DNA of 64,000 nt from an uncultured Flavobacteriaceae bacterium (GCA_963762065.1 CAVXJE010000001.1:92191-156190); one strand, 5' to 3'. Shown: positions 15,862 through 20,329, counted from the stretch's first letter. The notes: generated by a model from the letters alone, not told the origin. A program made the numbers and translations.

Positions 15862-16320
15862 ATGAAAAGGTTTGTTTTAAAAACAAGTGGGTTATTGTTG
15901 GTGCTTGCCCTCATAGTTGGTAGCTGTGGAAGCTCCAAAGAAGCAGTCAACATTTCCGATGAAGAAAAAATGGCCTTCAACCAAAAGGAAAAGGATACAA
16001 TATCAATCGCTAACGAAGAAGTTGAATATGAAATAATAATAATCGAACCTGGTTTTAATTTTTGGTTGCAAAGCATTGCAAAACCAAAAGGATTTTATTC
16101 ACAATCTTTTTTAGAGAATAGAAATCAGCTATACGTTATTCAATGGAATCAGCGTGTAATGCAACCGCTAAGGTACAACCCCAATTTATACGAATTACAG
16201 ATAGATTATTCACCAAACATAGATTATGGTTATGAAGTAAATTACAAACTTTACAACTATTTCATTTACTTTCAACGCAAATACAATCAAAGATTAGGAC
16301 CTTTTGTCCCTCGAATTTAA
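15862..16320 (+). CDS. Conserved flavobacterial lipoprotein (DUF6146-like)
   Basis: Lipobox IVGSC; EYEIIIIEPGF and YGYEVNYKLYNYFIYFQ motifs. Confidence 0.75.
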   Translation: MKRFVLKTSGLLLVLALIVGSCGSSKEAVNISDEEKMAFNQKEKDTISIANEEVEYEIIIIEPGFNFWLQSIAKPKGFYSQSFLENRNQLYVIQWNQRVMQPLRYNPNLYELQIDYSPNIDYGYEVNYKLYNYFIYFQRKYNQRLGPFVPRI

Positions 16321-16324
16321 AAAG

Positions 16325-16332
16325 TATATTTG
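16325..16332 (+). promoter_or_regulatory. -7 promoter element (TATATTTG)
   Basis: Exact TAnnTTTG 20 nt upstream of the ATG at 16352. Confidence 0.55.
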
Positions 16333-16351
16333 TCCCAGATTAAATTGTGAT

Positions 16352-16654
16352 ATGGAGAAATTAAAGCAAAGATGGGGCATTGATTCGAATTTTCAAATTA
16401 TTGTCATTTGTATTGTTTTTGCCGTGACAGGATCAGCTGCCACAAAATTGGCACAGCCATTAACAGAATTTATCGGTTTAGGAAAGGAAACTACAAATGC
16501 TTGGATTTATTGGACTGTCAGAATCTTACTTATTTTCCCTATTTATCAGGTTTTACTGGTTGCTTTCGGTTGGCTTTTTGGTCAGTTTAAATTCTTTTGG
16601 AACTTTGAAAAGAAAATGTTGAACAGAATAGGCTTGGGGTTCCTTATTAAATAG
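16352..16654 (+). CDS. Small membrane protein (DUF6787-like)
   Basis: MEKLKQRWGI…IFPIYQVLLVAFGWLFGQFKFFWNFEKKM; start chosen downstream of the promoter box. Confidence 0.75.
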   Translation: MEKLKQRWGIDSNFQIIVICIVFAVTGSAATKLAQPLTEFIGLGKETTNAWIYWTVRILLIFPIYQVLLVAFGWLFGQFKFFWNFEKKMLNRIGLGFLIK

Positions 16655-16707
16655 AATTAATCTTTTTTCAACTTCCCCTTTACTCCTTTATTGCCTAACT
16701 TTATGGT

Positions 16708-17040
16708 ATGGGACATTTTGAGCTTCAAATTCGGAATTCCATGGTTTCACTACTTCTGGTGGTCTTTATTCTAGCCCCATCAATAGTTAAATTTTCGCAT
16801 GCCATAAATGAACATGAGCTGTTGGAATGTAAGGAAATTGGAAAATTGCATTTTCATAAAATAGAGATGGATTGTGATTTTCAAAAATTCAATCTTTCGC
16901 CTGTAATATATCCGCCCTTAGTAGTATTTCCAGAATATTTTTCAGTTAGCATATTAAAAAACCATTTCTCCCATTATTCTTTTTTAAGCAATTACCAAAA
17001 TCTACATTTTGCATTAAGAGGCCCTCCCTTTATTTCATAG
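16708..17040 (+). CDS. Small membrane-anchored His/Cys protein ending in LRGPP; candidate arrest/leader peptide of the TonB receptor
   Basis: N-terminal hydrophobic helix; H/C cluster (HAINEHELLEC…HFH…CDF); RGPP at 17017-17028; stop 44 nt before the receptor ATG. Confidence 0.7.
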   Translation: MGHFELQIRNSMVSLLLVVFILAPSIVKFSHAINEHELLECKEIGKLHFHKIEMDCDFQKFNLSPVIYPPLVVFPEYFSVSILKNHFSHYSFLSNYQNLHFALRGPPFIS

Positions 17041-17084
17041 ATTATTCGATTAAAAAGAATCGGTAACTTTTAATTCAAAATGTA

Positions 17085-19304
17085 ATGAAATATTTATTTC
17101 TATTTATAATTTTTGCAATGTCCTATAATTGGGGCTTTGCACAAAATATAGTTTCAGGGACAATCACCAATAAAGAAGACAACCTTCCCATTGAGCAGGC
17201 TACCGTTTATTTTCCAGACTTGGAAATGGGCACAACTACTGATTACAATGGCTATTATGAATTAAATGATGTGCCTATTGGAAGTTTTGAAATGATAATA
17301 TCCAATATAGGATTTGAAACCTATTCAAAAAACTTAAATGTTTTATCGGGCAACAATACTTTTAATATAAGCCTTTCATCCACTGCTATAGAAATGGAGG
17401 AAGTTATTGTTTCCACCCCCTTTCACAAACTACAAAGTGAAAACGTCATGAAAGTAGAGCGTGAAAGCATGCAAGAACTTAGTGCCAATGGGGCGATAAC
17501 CCTTTCAGACGGTATTACAAAAATTGCAGGTGTTGAGAGTGTTTCTACCGGTGTTGGAATTGGCAAACCGGTAATCCGAGGGCTAAGTGCTAATAGGGTC
17601 TTGGTGTATACCCAAGGAGTACGTTTGGAAAATCAACAATTTGGGGATGAACATGGCCTCGGAATCAATGATGCAGGTTTGGAAAGTGTAGAGGTTATAA
17701 AAGGTCCCGCTTCCCTACTCTACGGCTCGGATGCTATGGGTGGTGTTCTTTATTTCAATCCTGAGAAATTCGCAATTCCGAATGAAACTGAAGGGGATGT
17801 AAACCTTAATTATTTTACCAATACCAATGGTCTTGGGTTCAATATAGGTGTAAAAACATCCAGTGAAAAACTAAAATTCCTGTTGCGTGGAAGCCATGCT
17901 TCACATATAGACTATAAAACAGGTGATGACGTACGTTTAACCAATTCCCGATTTAATGTATCTGATCTAAAAACGGGTTTGGGCTATCAATCAACATCAT
18001 TCAAAACTGAGTTACGATACAATTATAATCTATCAGAAATAGGTATTCCTGAAGAAATTGGTGAGCAGTCCAAAAGTCGTTCCCCACAACTGCCAAGTCA
18101 ACAAATAGGTAATCATATCCTTAGCAGCAAGACCAAAATTTTCTTTGATAAAACAAGTTTAGAGGCAACATTGGGCTATACTTTCAACAATCGGAAAGAA
18201 TTTGAGGATGACGAGGATATTGCCGCCCTGGAAATGCATTTGTCAACCTTAAATTACAATCTAAACTTTGAAATGCCCAAATGGGGAAATTTAGAGACCA
18301 TTATAGGGATTCAAGGAATGCATCAGACCAATAGAAACTACGGTGAAGAACAATTAATTCCTAACGCTAACACCAACGATATCGGGGTTTTAGCTACATC
18401 CCATATGCATTTTGAAAACAAAAGCGATCTTCAAATGGGGCTTCGATTTGACCATAGAAATATAAATGGTGAATTCAATAATAGACCTCCGGAGGATAGT
18501 TTCTATGAAAATTTTGACCGGGACTTTAATAGCTTCAATGCTGCACTAGGTTATAAATTTGAATTATTTAATAATACTGTAGCCAGAATTAATATGGCCA
18601 CTGGGTTTCGTGCACCCAACTTGGCTGAATTGACCTCACTTGGAGTCCATGAAGGCACCAATCGATATGAAATTGGGAAAATTGATTTAGATAATGAACA
18701 AAATTTTCAAACGGATATTTCATTGGAATATAAGGACGATCATCTTGAATTTTTCATAAACGGTTTTCACAACTCAATTACCGATTACATATTTATTGAA
18801 CCTACAGGTTTGAGTATAGGTGAGGATGAGGTATTTGAATATCGACAACAAAACGCTAAATTATTCGGTGGCGAAATTGGTTTTCACCTACACCCACATC
18901 CATTGGATTGGTTACATTTTGAGAGTAGTTTTGAAACGGTCATCGGAAAGCTGGAAAGTGATGAATACCTACCTCTTATTCCTGCCAACAACCTAACCAA
19001 TACCGTTCGGATTGAAGGAAAGGATACAACAAAATGGTTGAGGAACAAATACGCTTTTATTACCTTAAAATCGGTTTTCAATCAAAATAAGGTTGGTGGA
19101 TTCGAAGACCCTTCCGACGGATATAATTTGCTTAATCTTGGTATTGGTGCAAATATTTCTGCTTTTAACACACTTATAGAAGTTCGTGTGAGTGGTCAAA
19201 ATATAATGGATAAAGCTTATATTTCACATTTATCTCGTTTAAAAAATGATGGAATAGCAAATATTGGAAGAAATATTTCCCTTGCCGTAGGCATTCCATT
19301 ATGA
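17085..19304 (+). CDS. TonB-dependent receptor, probable metal/nutrient uptake
   Basis: Signal peptide; KPVIRGLS; ENQQFGDEHG plug; EVIKGPASLLYGSDAMGGV; GFRAPNLAEL. Confidence 0.93.
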   Translation: MKYLFLFIIFAMSYNWGFAQNIVSGTITNKEDNLPIEQATVYFPDLEMGTTTDYNGYYELNDVPIGSFEMIISNIGFETYSKNLNVLSGNNTFNISLSSTAIEMEEVIVSTPFHKLQSENVMKVERESMQELSANGAITLSDGITKIAGVESVSTGVGIGKPVIRGLSANRVLVYTQGVRLENQQFGDEHGLGINDAGLESVEVIKGPASLLYGSDAMGGVLYFNPEKFAIPNETEGDVNLNYFTNTNGLGFNIGVKTSSEKLKFLLRGSHASHIDYKTGDDVRLTNSRFNVSDLKTGLGYQSTSFKTELRYNYNLSEIGIPEEIGEQSKSRSPQLPSQQIGNHILSSKTKIFFDKTSLEATLGYTFNNRKEFEDDEDIAALEMHLSTLNYNLNFEMPKWGNLETIIGIQGMHQTNRNYGEEQLIPNANTNDIGVLATSHMHFENKSDLQMGLRFDHRNINGEFNNRPPEDSFYENFDRDFNSFNAALGYKFELFNNTVARINMATGFRAPNLAELTSLGVHEGTNRYEIGKIDLDNEQNFQTDISLEYKDDHLEFFINGFHNSITDYIFIEPTGLSIGEDEVFEYRQQNAKLFGGEIGFHLHPHPLDWLHFESSFETVIGKLESDEYLPLIPANNLTNTVRIEGKDTTKWLRNKYAFITLKSVFNQNKVGGFEDPSDGYNLLNLGIGANISAFNTLIEVRVSGQNIMDKAYISHLSRLKNDGIANIGRNISLAVGIPL

Positions 19305-19338: not shown

Positions 19339-19647
19339 CTAGTCTGCATCAATTTCAATTATTTTTCCTTTTTTTGAACTTTTGATAATGTAGGTGTAAA
19401 TCCACATAATAGTGAATGTCGGAACCACGTCCAAACCTGGGATTATTTCTTCAATAAAAGTAAAAACACCAGCAGCCTGACCTACTTTGCCCTTGTAGAG
19501 TCGAGTCATTAACCAGCCAGCCAAGGGAGCCCAAATAATGTCCGAAAAATCGCCAATAAAGGGTACAACGAATGAAAGCATACCAATACCATCGAATAAT
19601 AATCCCAATGCAAGGTTTTGGTACTTTTTATCTTTGTTTTTAGACAT
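19339..19647 (-). CDS. Conserved small membrane protein, hypothetical
   Basis: 102 aa with hydrophobic hairpins; DIIWAP and EEIIPGLDVVPTFT motifs. Confidence 0.75.
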   Translation of the reverse strand: MSKNKDKKYQNLALGLLFDGIGMLSFVVPFIGDFSDIIWAPLAGWLMTRLYKGKVGQAAGVFTFIEEIIPGLDVVPTFTIMWIYTYIIKSSKKGKIIEIDAD

Positions 19648-19720: not shown

Positions 19721-20329
19721 TTATGAAAGATTTGAACTGATTAATTTTAAAAATTCGTTGCGGGTCTCTTCTTTCACAAAACTTCCCCTAAATCCTGAGG
19801 TTGTGGTGACCGAATTTTGTTTTTGTACCCCACGCATCATCATACACATGTGGGCCGCTTCTATAACAACTGCAACCCCTTGAGGTTTCAAGGTGTCATT
19901 GATACAATCTAGGATTTGTTCGGTCAATCGCTCTTGAACTTGCAATCTACGGGCAAAAACATCAACAATCCGAGGCAATTTACTTAAACCAACAATCTGA
20001 CCATTCGGAATATATGCAATATGCGCCTTTCCAAAAAAAGGTAACATATGATGCTCACAAAGGGAATAAAGTTCAATGTCCTTTACAATGACCATTTCAT
20101 TATAAGATTCCTTGAACATTGCGCTTTTCAAAATGCTTGCAGCATCTTGTTGATATCCCTGTGTTAAAAACATCATAGCTTTTGCAGCACGCTCAGGGGT
20201 CTTTGCAAGACCTTCGCGAGAAATATCCTCTCCAATTTCCTCTATGATTTTTGAATACCTTTCCTTTACATCATTTGTGATTTCCAGATTATATTCTTCA
20301 AGACTTCTGTATGCTTTATTTTTTTTCAT
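19721..20329 (-). CDS. folE: GTP cyclohydrolase I
   Basis: [35 protein letters not shown]. Confidence 0.97.

Follow-up and report, generated by a model that had tools for sequence, protein, structure and literature searches.

The closest described counterparts of the locus analyzed here are the copper-sensing leaders CruR and CutF, both members of DUF2946. In Bordetella pertussis, CruR (Bp2923, DUF2946/PF11162) is the leader of the cruR-bfrG(crtA)-bp2921 operon (Roy et al. 2022, PMC9426467). It is encoded by a small first gene and carries an export signal, a Cys-containing metal motif and an R-[AG]-P-P motif three residues from the stop; the next gene encodes a TonB-dependent metal transporter, expression of which requires stalling, and control runs through Rho-dependent termination. 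The CruR spacer between the Cys motif and the Arg measures 45 residues and is constant within 1–2 residues in DUF2946, and adding five residues impaired regulation (PMC9426467). An in vitro demonstration of the CruR stall is reported in PMC12992588. CutF is the leader of cutFOG in Rhodobacter capsulatus (PMC9973294; bioRxiv 10.1101/2025.02.05.636593) and is also an exported, metal-sensing nascent chain with a C-terminal, proline-rich stall. Copper induces its stall; the stalled ribosome then melts a stem-loop that shields the Shine-Dalgarno-type site of the gene downstream, and a detoxifying multicopper oxidase is switched on at the level of translation. In SecM-secA and MifM-yidC2, a near-C-terminal stall in an exported leader keeps the downstream initiation region unpaired until an event on the nascent chain outside the ribosome brings about release. 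These two leaders monitor the export machinery that they regulate.

The tetrapeptides RAPP and RGPP stall the ribosomes of both E. coli and B. subtilis, resist EF-P and are avoided across bacteria, as described by Fujiwara et al. 2025 (EMBO J, PMC12992588). The same study places RAPP/RGPP uORFs ahead of TonB receptors “universally in Gram-negative bacteria”, a class collected by motif and downstream annotation; its available portion does not define the family described below, the invariant residues of that family or its fixed spacing. DUF2946 itself has been reported mostly from Proteobacteria, with few members in Planctomycetes, Firmicutes and Deinococcus.

The window, a stretch of 64,000 nucleotides from an uncultured marine member of the Flavobacteriaceae (GCA_963762065.1 CAVXJE010000001.1:92191-156190), contains a comparable arrangement, in which a 110-aa leader ORF with a TAG stop codon (17038-17040) precedes a TonB-dependent receptor gene (Table 1). 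A sequence-only reading of the window had already singled out this ORF for its N-terminal hydrophobic segment (located here at residues 12-27), its HAINEHELLEC, KLHFH and CDF motifs, an LRGPP placed three codons from the stop (F-I-S, then TAG) and a stop codon 44 nt ahead of the receptor start at 17085. All of these were recovered, with one correction: the position given for LRGPP, 17017-17028, fits RGPP only, and LRGPP occupies 17014-17028. By analogy with the systems above, we think it rather probable that the leader is a regulatory ribosome-arrest peptide controlling translation of the downstream receptor. It is most likely a metal-responsive translational switch, a Bacteroidota variant of CruR and CutF, and as such largely anticipated.

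Table 1. Positions of the leader, the receptor and their candidate regulatory elements, counted from the first letter of the window.
Feature	Position	Strand	Basis
Putative Bacteroidota-type promoter -7 box TAACTTTA; its end lies 4 nt ahead of the leader ATG	16696..16703	+	consensus TAnnTTTG
Leader ORF, candidate arrest-peptide uORF	16708..17040	+	sequence and translation; relatives found by comparison
N-terminal hydrophobic export/anchor segment, residues 12-27, invariant Pro24	16741..16788	+	alignment and AlphaFold2; topology putative
His/Cys cluster, presumed ligand sensor: H31, H36, C41, H48-x-H50, D55-C56-x-x-Q59	16798..16884	+	conservation
Spacer between presumed sensor and stall site, residues 60-103	16885..17016	+	length fixed, sequence largely variable
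RGPP arrest motif (AGA GGC CCT CCC), Arg104-Pro107	17017..17028	+	conservation, synonymous codons; stall site by analogy
Predicted helix, 5′ arm TATTTCAT: last 7 coding bases of the leader and T of the stop	17031..17038	+	complementary to 17085-17092
A+T-rich spacer, 44 nt, leader stop to receptor start	17041..17084	+	no terminator; sequence poorly conserved
Predicted helix, 3′ arm ATGAAATA: receptor start codon and next 5 nt	17085..17092	+	complementarity, covariation, folds
TonB-dependent receptor, 739 aa, putative regulated gene	17085..19304	+	Pfam CarboxypepD_reg, Plug, beta-barrel

Scans of the leader protein against Pfam and NCBIfam, curated Bacteroidota small-protein models included, returned no matching model. 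Comparison identified 14 close relatives and 260 distant ones (50%-identity cluster), which constitute a family of Bacteroidota proteins of about 110 aa without an existing family model; a profile search of a 5.8-billion-protein set matched unannotated Bacteroidota proteins only. Among 401 sampled Bacteroidota genomes, 33 contain the family, as do 25 of the 29 sampled genomes from the taxonomic family of the window, with up to 4 copies per genome. Flavobacterium johnsoniae, a genetically tractable laboratory strain, carries paralogues of its own. The genome containing the window has a single copy. A search of sequencing runs for this locus matched DNA metagenomes from sediments only, and no RNA or ribosome-profiling run.

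The R[AG]PP motif is found in 160 of 164 homologues, at 1-6 residues from the stop (mode 3), and its codons vary synonymously among relatives (Arg AGA/AGG/CGN, Gly GGN, Pro CCN). In the genome of the window, RGPP and RAPP together do not occur once in 2928 long ORFs (1.1 million residues), and the leader is the sole ORF of 60-250 aa with the motif near its C-terminus. Conservation and rarity of this degree are far beyond chance. As a small ORF that has R-[AG]-P-P shortly before its stop and a candidate regulated gene downstream, the leader has the makeup of the RAPP/RGPP arrest peptides. It also fits exactly the class surveyed by Fujiwara et al., small uORFs with an export signal and RGPP near the C-terminus ahead of a TonB receptor. 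By analogy with the CruR toeprint (PMC12992588), the P site of the stalled ribosome is expected to hold Pro106 (17023-17025) and its A site Pro107 (17026-17028). The sequence-only reading knew of no characterization of such leaders in Flavobacteria. The class has in fact been catalogued: the source data of Fujiwara et al. include a flavobacterial member of the present family, WP_083645465.1 (106 aa), with the pattern H..H..C..HxH..DCD..LRGPP. No family member was found among the peptides tested in the available portion of that work, and neither an anti-start helix nor a leaderless arrangement appears there.

Upstream of the motif, the protein can be divided into three parts. The N-terminal segment aligns as hydrophobic columns preceded by basic residues, with P24 present in 100% of 160 aligned sequences; in the AlphaFold2 model, residues 3-34 form a helix (the mean pLDDT for residues 1-30 is 92-98), and the export signal was judged by sequence alone. 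The His/Cys cluster is conserved at 97% (H31), 93% (H36), 98% (C41), 100% (H48), 99% (H50) and 99% (C56) in the same alignment, and the H-x-H lies 8 residues ahead of C56 in 183 of 191 family members. Finally, of 194 members, 162 have a spacer of exactly 44 residues from the Cys motif to the Arg, and in 190 its length is 43-45. Hardly any indels interrupt alignment columns 24-107, yet columns 62-89 show an identity of only 11-38%. We propose that residues 60-103 act as a ruler that sets the distance from sensor to stall site.

It is also conceivable that the ORF encodes a small, stable metal-binding protein of the inner membrane or periplasm, which partners the receptor, for example in metal hand-over, and that RGPP is structural or incidental. 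The strong conservation of the N-terminal anchor and the His/Cys residues is what one would see in a functional protein, and such a role is compatible with a regulatory one, since the two are not mutually exclusive. However, a 44-residue stretch that keeps its length and not its sequence fits this explanation poorly, as does a motif otherwise avoided in this proteome and across bacteria (PMC12992588). The AlphaFold2 model (pTM 0.38) shows a membrane helix followed by coil and no compact sensor domain; the missing sensor fold also weighs against the arrest-peptide reading that we prefer. Covariation and a synonymous-site signal at the 3′ end of the leader, described below, point to a role at the RNA level. 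We consider the probability of a purely protein-level function to be low.

The resemblance to DUF2946 lies in layout more than in sequence. The layout is that of CruR, as the sequence-only reading had it. The Cys-to-Arg spacer found here has 44 residues as compared to 45, the motif lies three residues from the C-terminus in both, and there are a predicted export signal and a TonB receptor gene next in line. The spacing also agrees with DUF2946 at large, where the RAPP-type motif lies about 45 residues past the Cys motif (44-47 in the 11 CxxC-bearing sequences that we found), and so do the predicted N-terminal anchor or export segment and the first position in what is probably a metal-related operon. 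In contrast, the leader lacks the CXXC of DUF2946. It reads C56-D-F-Q59, with Q59 in the position of the second Cys; four His are invariant in addition, and another Cys precedes C56 by 15 residues. That reading had also called the sensor His-rich rather than CxxC, which holds for the clade of the window (C-x-x-Q/Y); more distant Bacteroidota members retain CxxC, and in the family as a whole 54 members have Y at the fourth position, 45 have C and 42 have Q. The protein is shorter than CruR, has no match to PF11162 even at E ≤ 10 (gathering score 23.7 bits), and a PF11162 search of its genome found nothing. Of 15 divergent Bacteroidota relatives, 5 gave sub-threshold PF11162 matches in the right register over model positions 52-117, the best with an E-value of 0.0019, and one member reached 18.7 bits. 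When aligned with hhalign to 12 DUF2946-annotated sequences from the Fujiwara source data, the CxxC-bearing Bacteroidota subset matched from the membrane helix to the CxxC (probability 70%, E 4e-5), whereas the clade of the window showed no significant similarity (probability just 2%). The host phylum, Bacteroidota, is a further difference from CruR.

Leader and receptor are paired in at least 55 of 60 loci. Within the Flavobacteriaceae, a TonB receptor follows 36-55 nt after the leader in 29 of 32 loci (the other three were not resolved), including three in which the receptor is just 26% identical. In a phylum-wide sample, a receptor is next in 25 of 29 loci, while in the remaining four the leader is followed by a gene for an ABC ATPase; at the one of these that was looked into (L065), a receptor and two ABC-2 permease genes come after the ATPase. 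Additional operon genes past the receptor were considered in Zobellia and rejected: the inserted genes are unrelated and lie on the opposite strand, and the unit is therefore bicistronic. No PepSY_TM gene lies downstream, unlike in the CruR operon. Across 41 loci, the distance from leader stop to receptor start is 36-57 nt. The RGPP motif, the His/Cys positions and this distance, which the sequence-only reading had put forward for comparison among orthologues, are thus all kept.

The linkage also bears on a role in protein export. The stalled, anchored nascent-chain complex could serve mainly to keep the bicistronic mRNA near the Sec translocon, with the receptor synthesized beside its site of export, or could monitor Sec in the manner of SecM, with no metal sensing involved. 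Most known RAPP-type arrest peptides report on Sec/YidC activity, their release being brought about by the force of translocation, and the leader does carry a predicted export signal. This explanation nevertheless accounts neither for six invariant His/Cys residues at a fixed distance from the stall nor for the exclusive association with TonB receptors and metal-type operons, and we regard it as very improbable.

Upstream of the leader, 35 of the 60 family loci have a TAnnTTT[GA] sequence whose end lies 4-6 nt ahead of the start codon, compared with 3.7% of 2793 long ORFs in this genome. We take TAnnTTTG to be the Bacteroidetes promoter -7 consensus, and its distance to the transcription start is likewise assumed. 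Since the -7 box abuts the leader ATG, the mRNA is probably leaderless or nearly so. Between leader and receptor, the sequence-only reading saw no strong terminator, and no terminator-like site was found there in the window. A terminator or attenuator in the spacer was accordingly rejected; the small hairpins of some relatives are not conserved.

The new element of this analysis is a predicted helix between the tail of the leader and the start of the receptor. Comparative evidence indicates that this helix is conserved, although in the window itself it is weak. The two arms pair in a fixed register, with the T of the leader stop opposite the A of the receptor ATG, and this register is common to relatives, where it shows covariation. 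At least 7 contiguous pairs in this register are found in 41% of 41 loci but in only 1.1% of 262 same-strand gene pairs of this genome. The tail-to-start duplex has a mean energy of -7.9 kcal/mol; other leader windows average -3.9 and shuffles -4.3, and at 34 of 61 loci p is at most 0.05. When partners are swapped among loci, the mean run drops from 4.78 to 3.90 ± 0.14 (0 of 2000 permutations reach the observed value), and 18 of 24 loci use TCA for the last Ser versus 22% genome-wide (p = 5e-8), p-values that overstate independence, permutation and binomial alike, because the loci share phylogeny. The helix covariation score is 0.224 versus 0.160 ± 0.015 when shuffled (0 of 500 shuffles reach 0.224), one pair reads CG in 13 loci and UA in 13, and RNAalifold returns the tail-to-start helix as the sole consensus element. 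About one third of the short-spacer loci lack the fixed register. In the window, the helix is present in both the minimum-energy and the centroid fold, but it has only 8 base pairs, 7 of them A-U, and its duplex ranks only 0.07-0.08 against controls. The local fold (-7.5 kcal/mol, z = +0.19) is not more stable than shuffles and is therefore unusable as support for the helix.

This weakness is one reason to weigh a transcriptional output of the kind found in Bordetella, in which the stalled ribosome would block Rho or keep RNA polymerase coupled, allowing read-through into the receptor gene. Stall release would then expose RNA on which Rho terminates, and the tail-to-start complementarity would be secondary. 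It is also the only mechanism demonstrated for a leader paired with a TonB receptor (PMC9426467). DUF2946 operons, however, mostly have long intergenic distances, whereas the spacer here is short and A+T-rich rather than C-rich (its 44 nt include 5 C and 5 G), and a Rho model leaves the register-specific covariation and the TCA bias unexplained. Termination by Rho thus appears unlikely as the output at this locus, and a start-codon-sequestering helix would set it apart from CruR.

Translational control by the arrest peptide, the reading that we prefer, could proceed as follows. The leader would be transcribed from the promoter abutting its own ATG, and the N-terminal hydrophobic segment would bring the nascent chain to the inner membrane. 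CruR regulation is unaffected by removal of the export signal (PMC9426467), which counts against this last assignment. A ribosome stalled on R-G-P-P would cover the next ~12 nt, that is, three tail codons and the stop, which make up the 5′ arm of the helix; the receptor start codon would therefore be single-stranded and translation on. Initiation in Bacteroidota proceeds largely without Shine-Dalgarno pairing, a setting in which exposure of the start codon itself would count. During the stall, the 44-residue spacer would place the His/Cys cluster just beyond the exit tunnel, where the transported metal (our best guess is zinc, followed by copper) may bind and so release the stall. Following release and termination, the helix would reform and receptor synthesis fall, resulting in a CruR-like negative feedback on uptake. 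Melting of a structure over the next initiation region would be shared with CutF; there the structure shields a Shine-Dalgarno-type site, while here the predicted helix covers the start codon and has its 5′ arm inside the last codons of the leader. SecM and MifM likewise keep a downstream initiation region unpaired and are released by an event on the emerging chain, but the His/Cys cluster and the putative regulated gene suggest a metal or small-molecule signal here rather than the state of the export machinery.

The opposite logic, with a ligand that induces or stabilizes the stall, would let a substrate such as a metal chelate or haem switch the receptor on. CutF provides a DUF2946 precedent in its copper-induced stall, and the geometry of the helix makes stalling the “on” state here as well. 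The gene regulated at this locus, though, is an uptake receptor and not a detoxifying enzyme, and metal uptake systems are normally repressed by their own metal, as with CruR. Nothing in the sequence decides the direction, and for these reasons we hold a ligand-induced stall to be quite improbable.

The ligand may be approached through the receptor. Its DEHG plug motif, pointed out in the sequence-only reading, is part of a GDEHG at residues 187-191. The nearest solved structures are ZnuD 4rdr (zinc) and OprC (copper), and the best NCBIfam matches are ZnuD (161 bits), TonB-hemin (140) and TonB-copper (80), all far below their cut-offs; for the ZnuD model NF038289, the curated cut-off is 950 bits. 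By sequence, the receptor belongs to the ZnuD/OprC/haem-receptor group, and not to the CrtA family of the CruR operon. The high-affinity zinc ligands of ZnuD are Asp99, His100, Glu340 and His499 (PMC4557270). In the alignment with 4rdr_A, receptor residues E189-H190 and H522 fall opposite a D-H and an H of that chain, which correspond to D99-H100 and H499 if the chain has 14 extra N-terminal residues, as assumed here; Glu340 lies outside the alignment. These residues need not be zinc-specific, because haem receptors share conserved motifs with ZnuD. A haem-type receptor could equally be encoded, as the TonB-hemin model scores nearly as high as ZnuD.

How Bacteroidota regulate their metal uptake is little understood. 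If the proposed arrest mechanism is correct, CruR/CutF-type control would reach beyond Pfam DUF2946 and into this phylum, nascent-peptide metal sensing would work without CxxC, and the 8-bp helix between leader tail and receptor start codon would offer a concrete RNA mechanism that can be mutated. Being common, the leader family could be used in annotation to mark metal-uptake receptors of unknown substrate. A more speculative joint reading, which we put forward tentatively and consider somewhat unlikely as a whole, is that this is the first nascent-chain switch to sense zinc rather than copper, with the His4Cys2 cluster reading periplasmic zinc. A ZnuD-like receptor would then be controlled purely at translation initiation on a leaderless mRNA, by a stalled ribosome that physically uncovers the next start codon, an arrangement suited to a phylum that does not rely on Shine-Dalgarno pairing. 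In that case, the Flavobacterium-like paralogous leaders would be ligand-specific nascent-chain sensors for different uptake operons.

The sequence-only reading described the ORF considered here as a metal-sensing ribosome-arrest leader, ending in LRGPP, that controls a TonB-dependent receptor. The 110-aa ORF is real, with RGPP three codons ahead of its stop, and the receptor does begin 44 nt past that stop; a consensus scan of the gap for a terminator-like site found none. The leader has no match in Pfam or NCBIfam. A word-indexed search recovers 14 close relatives, and an exhaustive phmmer search (E ≤ 0.001) recovers 260 cluster representatives, nearly all of 90-125 aa. If the reading was right, orthologues could be expected to keep the motif, the His/Cys positions and the stop-to-start spacing. 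R[AG]PP is found 1-6 residues from the C-terminus in 160 of 164 family sequences (exactly three residues from it in 103), and in an alignment of 160 sequences the His/Cys positions are 93-100% conserved: H31 97%, H36 93%, C41 98%, H48 100%, H50 99% and C56 99%. P24 (100%), L103 (93%) and R104, P106 and P107 (99% each) are likewise near-invariant, and position 105 is Gly (79%) or Ala (19%). The H-x-H starts 8 residues upstream of C56 in 183 of 191 members. The C56-R104 stretch is variable in sequence and fixed in length: between C-x-x-X and the Arg, 162 of 194 members have 44 residues, and 190 have 43-45. The Arg, Gly and Pro codons of the motif vary freely among synonymous codons across relatives, indicating that selection acts on the peptide. 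An AlphaFold2 model gives a confident N-terminal helix at residues 3-34 and coil for the rest (pTM 0.38), which fits a leader peptide better than it fits a folded domain.

Features of the leader-receptor locus (window coordinates)
Feature	Position	Strand	Detail
152-aa gene	15862-16320		signal-peptide-like N-terminus; upstream of leader, next to DUF6787 gene
DUF6787 membrane protein gene	16304-16654		directly upstream of leader; stop only ~53 nt before leader ATG
-7 promoter box, Bacteroidota type	16696-16703	+	TAACTTTA; ends 4 nt ahead of leader ATG
Leader ORF	16708-17040	+	110 aa: MGHFELQIRNSMVSLLLVVFILAPSIVKFSHAINEHELLECKEIGKLHFHKIEMDCDFQKFNLSPVIYPPLVVFPEYFSVSILKNHFSHYSFLSNYQNLHFALRGPPFIS
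RGPP motif of leader	17017-17028	+	3 further codons, then TAG 17038-17040
Anti-start helix, 5′ arm	17031-17038	+	TATTTCAT; leader's last bases and T of stop
Anti-start helix, 3′ arm	17085-17092	+	ATGAAATA; receptor start, exact complement of 17031-17038
TonB-dependent receptor	17085-19304	+	739 aa; CarboxypepD_reg, Plug, beta-barrel (Pfam)
Conserved 102-aa membrane protein gene	19339-19647	-	no family match
GTP cyclohydrolase I gene, FolE-like	19721-20329	-	motif CEHH

The closest known design is that of CruR from Bordetella pertussis, which consists of an export signal, a CXXC, 45 residues and RAPP three residues from the C-terminus; copper acting via CXXC relieves the RAPP-dependent arrest, leading to Rho-dependent termination ahead of the transporter gene (PMC9426467). 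In vitro, Fujiwara et al. (PMC12992588) demonstrated that CruR stalls the ribosome while the Pro codons occupy the P and A sites. The same layout is seen in the window's family, with a ruler of almost equal length (44 versus 45 residues). The DUF2946 Pfam model, to which CruR belongs, matches neither the leader nor anything else in the window's genome. More distant Bacteroidota members retain CxxC at the C56..Q59 position, and 5 of 15 give sub-threshold DUF2946 matches in the correct register. Against a DUF2946 alignment built from 12 so-annotated sequences in the Fujiwara source data (PMC12992588), hhalign gives the CxxC-bearing Bacteroidota subset a probability of 70% (E 4e-5, membrane helix to CxxC) and the window's own clade 2%. 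We conclude that the family shares the DUF2946 design and may be distantly homologous to it, but that it cannot be classed as DUF2946. As a Bacteroidota counterpart of CruR, the leader qualifies by layout and ruler, not by family membership, its similarity to the Pfam family being weak. The proposed His-rich, non-CxxC sensor fits the window's clade, where the second Cys is lost and four His are conserved.

CruR and CutF are already characterised. Among small ORFs that precede genes with the annotation "TonB-dependent receptor", Fujiwara et al. 2025 (PMC12992588) count 4450 with RGPP and 5450 with RAPP; they call this class universal in Gram-negative bacteria and report proteome-wide RGPP/RAPP avoidance. 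In agreement with the avoidance described there, neither RGPP nor RAPP occurs in the window's genome among its 2928 ORFs of 150 aa or longer, which total 1.1 million residues and in which similar motifs such as KGPP, AGPP and SAPP each appear 1-6 times, and the leader is the only 60-250-aa ORF in that genome ending with either motif. The remark that no such leader was known to be characterised in Flavobacteria needs qualifying, as the source table of the same paper (PMC12992588) lists a flavobacterial protein with the family's pattern. In the searchable literature we found neither a definition of the Bacteroidota family nor a description of its ruler and invariant residues, of the CxxC loss in the window's clade, of the leaderless arrangement or of the anti-start helix. 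The helix is an RNA element that the sequence-only reading did not contain.

A scan of one genome per species yielded 32 Flavobacteriaceae loci, among them Maribacter, Zobellia, Pareuzebyella, Saonia, Euzebyella, Kriegella, Algibacter and Ichthyenterobacterium. Gene order is kept (serA-like gene, two small genes, DUF6787, leader, receptor), and the DUF6787 and 152-aa genes adjoin the leader in almost all of them. Spacing is conserved too: the receptor starts 36-55 nt past the leader stop in the 29 of the 32 loci that could be resolved, including three whose receptor is only 26% identical to the window's. Genes 3′ of the receptor lie on the opposite strand both in the window and in the Zobellia locus that was inspected closely, making the leader-receptor unit bicistronic. 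In most relatives the 102-aa and FolE-like genes converge on the 3′ end of the receptor gene; some genera carry unrelated genes in between, and those of the inspected Zobellia locus look, from their sequences alone, desaturase-, cytochrome- and molybdoenzyme-type.

The leader family is present in 33 of 401 sampled Bacteroidota genomes. These include 25 of the 29 genomes sampled from the window's taxonomic family, along with a few that belong to other families and classes, and some genomes carry up to four copies. A TonB receptor is the next gene in 25 of 29 loci from this sample, and an ABC ATPase gene in the other four; at L065, the one of these looked at further, the ATPase gene is followed by a TonB receptor gene and by two ABC-2 permease genes with DUF3526. 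Another paralogue's operon holds two DUF4625 lipoprotein genes, a receptor gene and a lipoprotein gene with an Asp/His-rich N-terminus (NDDDNHDDHDHDD). Paralogous RAPP/RGPP leaders within one genome head different operons (L065, L067 and L069, from two genomes, G047 and G239, of another genus of the window's family), with spacers of 59-352 nt, much longer than the window's.

The box directly ahead of the leader fits TAnnTTTG, which we take to be the Bacteroidota-type -7 consensus. Such a box lies 4-6 nt ahead of the start in 35 of 60 family loci, versus 3.7% of the genome's long ORFs, and its position in the window suggests that the leader mRNA is probably leaderless. About 20-30 nt upstream of the box, a conserved block (16660-16690 and the equivalent region of related loci L005-L022 and L035) reads cTTTTCTTAACAg in relatives and cttttttcaac in the window; no clear palindrome was seen in it, and it could be a -33 promoter element or a regulator site.

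The leader tail is complementary to the receptor start, and relatives keep the register, with the stop-codon T opposite the A of ATG and both sides changing together: GGCTTCAT with ATGAAGC, GTTGCAT with ATGCAAC, TTTTCAT with ATGAAAA. Of the 41 loci whose spacer does not exceed 57 nt, 41% have 7 or more contiguous pairs in this register; among the 262 same-strand gene pairs of the window's genome that are separated by 30-60 nt, the share is 1.1%. The mean run is 4.78, versus 3.90 ± 0.14 with partners permuted among loci (0 of 2000 reach it). RNAduplex energies between leader tail and initiation region average -7.9 kcal/mol, versus -3.9 for other windows of the same leaders and -4.3 for shuffled tails, with p ≤ 0.05 in 34 of 61 loci, although p-values for the helix overstate independence because the loci are related by descent. 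The helix has a covariation score of 0.224 in an anchored alignment of 33 loci, versus 0.160 ± 0.015 for shuffles (0 of 500 reach it), and every slid register scores lower; one pair is CG in 13, UA in 13 and UG in 3. RNAalifold on a MAFFT alignment of the whole region returns the 7-bp helix as its only consensus structure, with compensatory change at three pairs. TCA makes up 18 of 24 final Ser codons, versus 22% usage genome-wide (p = 5e-8), pointing to synonymous-site constraint. About a third of short-spacer loci pair differently, some joining the tail to an A-rich region upstream of the start, and the window's own helix is weak (local fold -7.5 kcal/mol, no better than shuffles, z = +0.19).

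The nearest solved relatives of the receptor are ZnuD (zinc) and OprC (copper); in NCBIfam, ZnuD ranks first, followed by haem and copper families, all far below cut-offs. In the alignment with ZnuD, E189-H190 (a Glu-His pair in the plug; GDEHG, residues 187-191) and H522 (a His after the FRAP motif; GVHEG, residues 520-524) fall on residues that would correspond to the zinc ligands D99-H100 and H499, provided that 14 extra N-terminal residues are present in the crystallised chain; since ZnuD shares conserved motifs with haem receptors, these need not be zinc-specific. The D/E-H pair also occurs in three other receptors following related leaders (L020, L063 and L067). A sensor that has four His, two Cys and several acidic residues but no CxxC would favour zinc or copper(II) over copper(I), and we would rank zinc first, copper second, and haem or iron third.

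A ribosome covers roughly 12-16 nt downstream of its P site, as seen in footprints and toeprints. If stalled with Pro106 (17023-17025) in the P site, it would cover up to the leader stop codon, which is exactly the 5′ arm of the anti-start helix; this would account for the near-constant placement of the motif three codons before the stop, and would hold the receptor start codon open. Upon stall release and termination the helix could form. Melting, by a stalled ribosome, of a structure that covers the initiation region of the following gene has a precedent in CutF (PMC9973294; bioRxiv 10.1101/2025.02.05.636593). During the stall the His/Cys cluster, 46-75 residues from the P-site residue, should lie outside the exit tunnel. 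The comparisons made here support the interpretation of the leader as an arrest peptide and make this mechanism of receptor control plausible; release of the stall by the transported metal would, by analogy with CruR, be a sensible logic for an uptake receptor.
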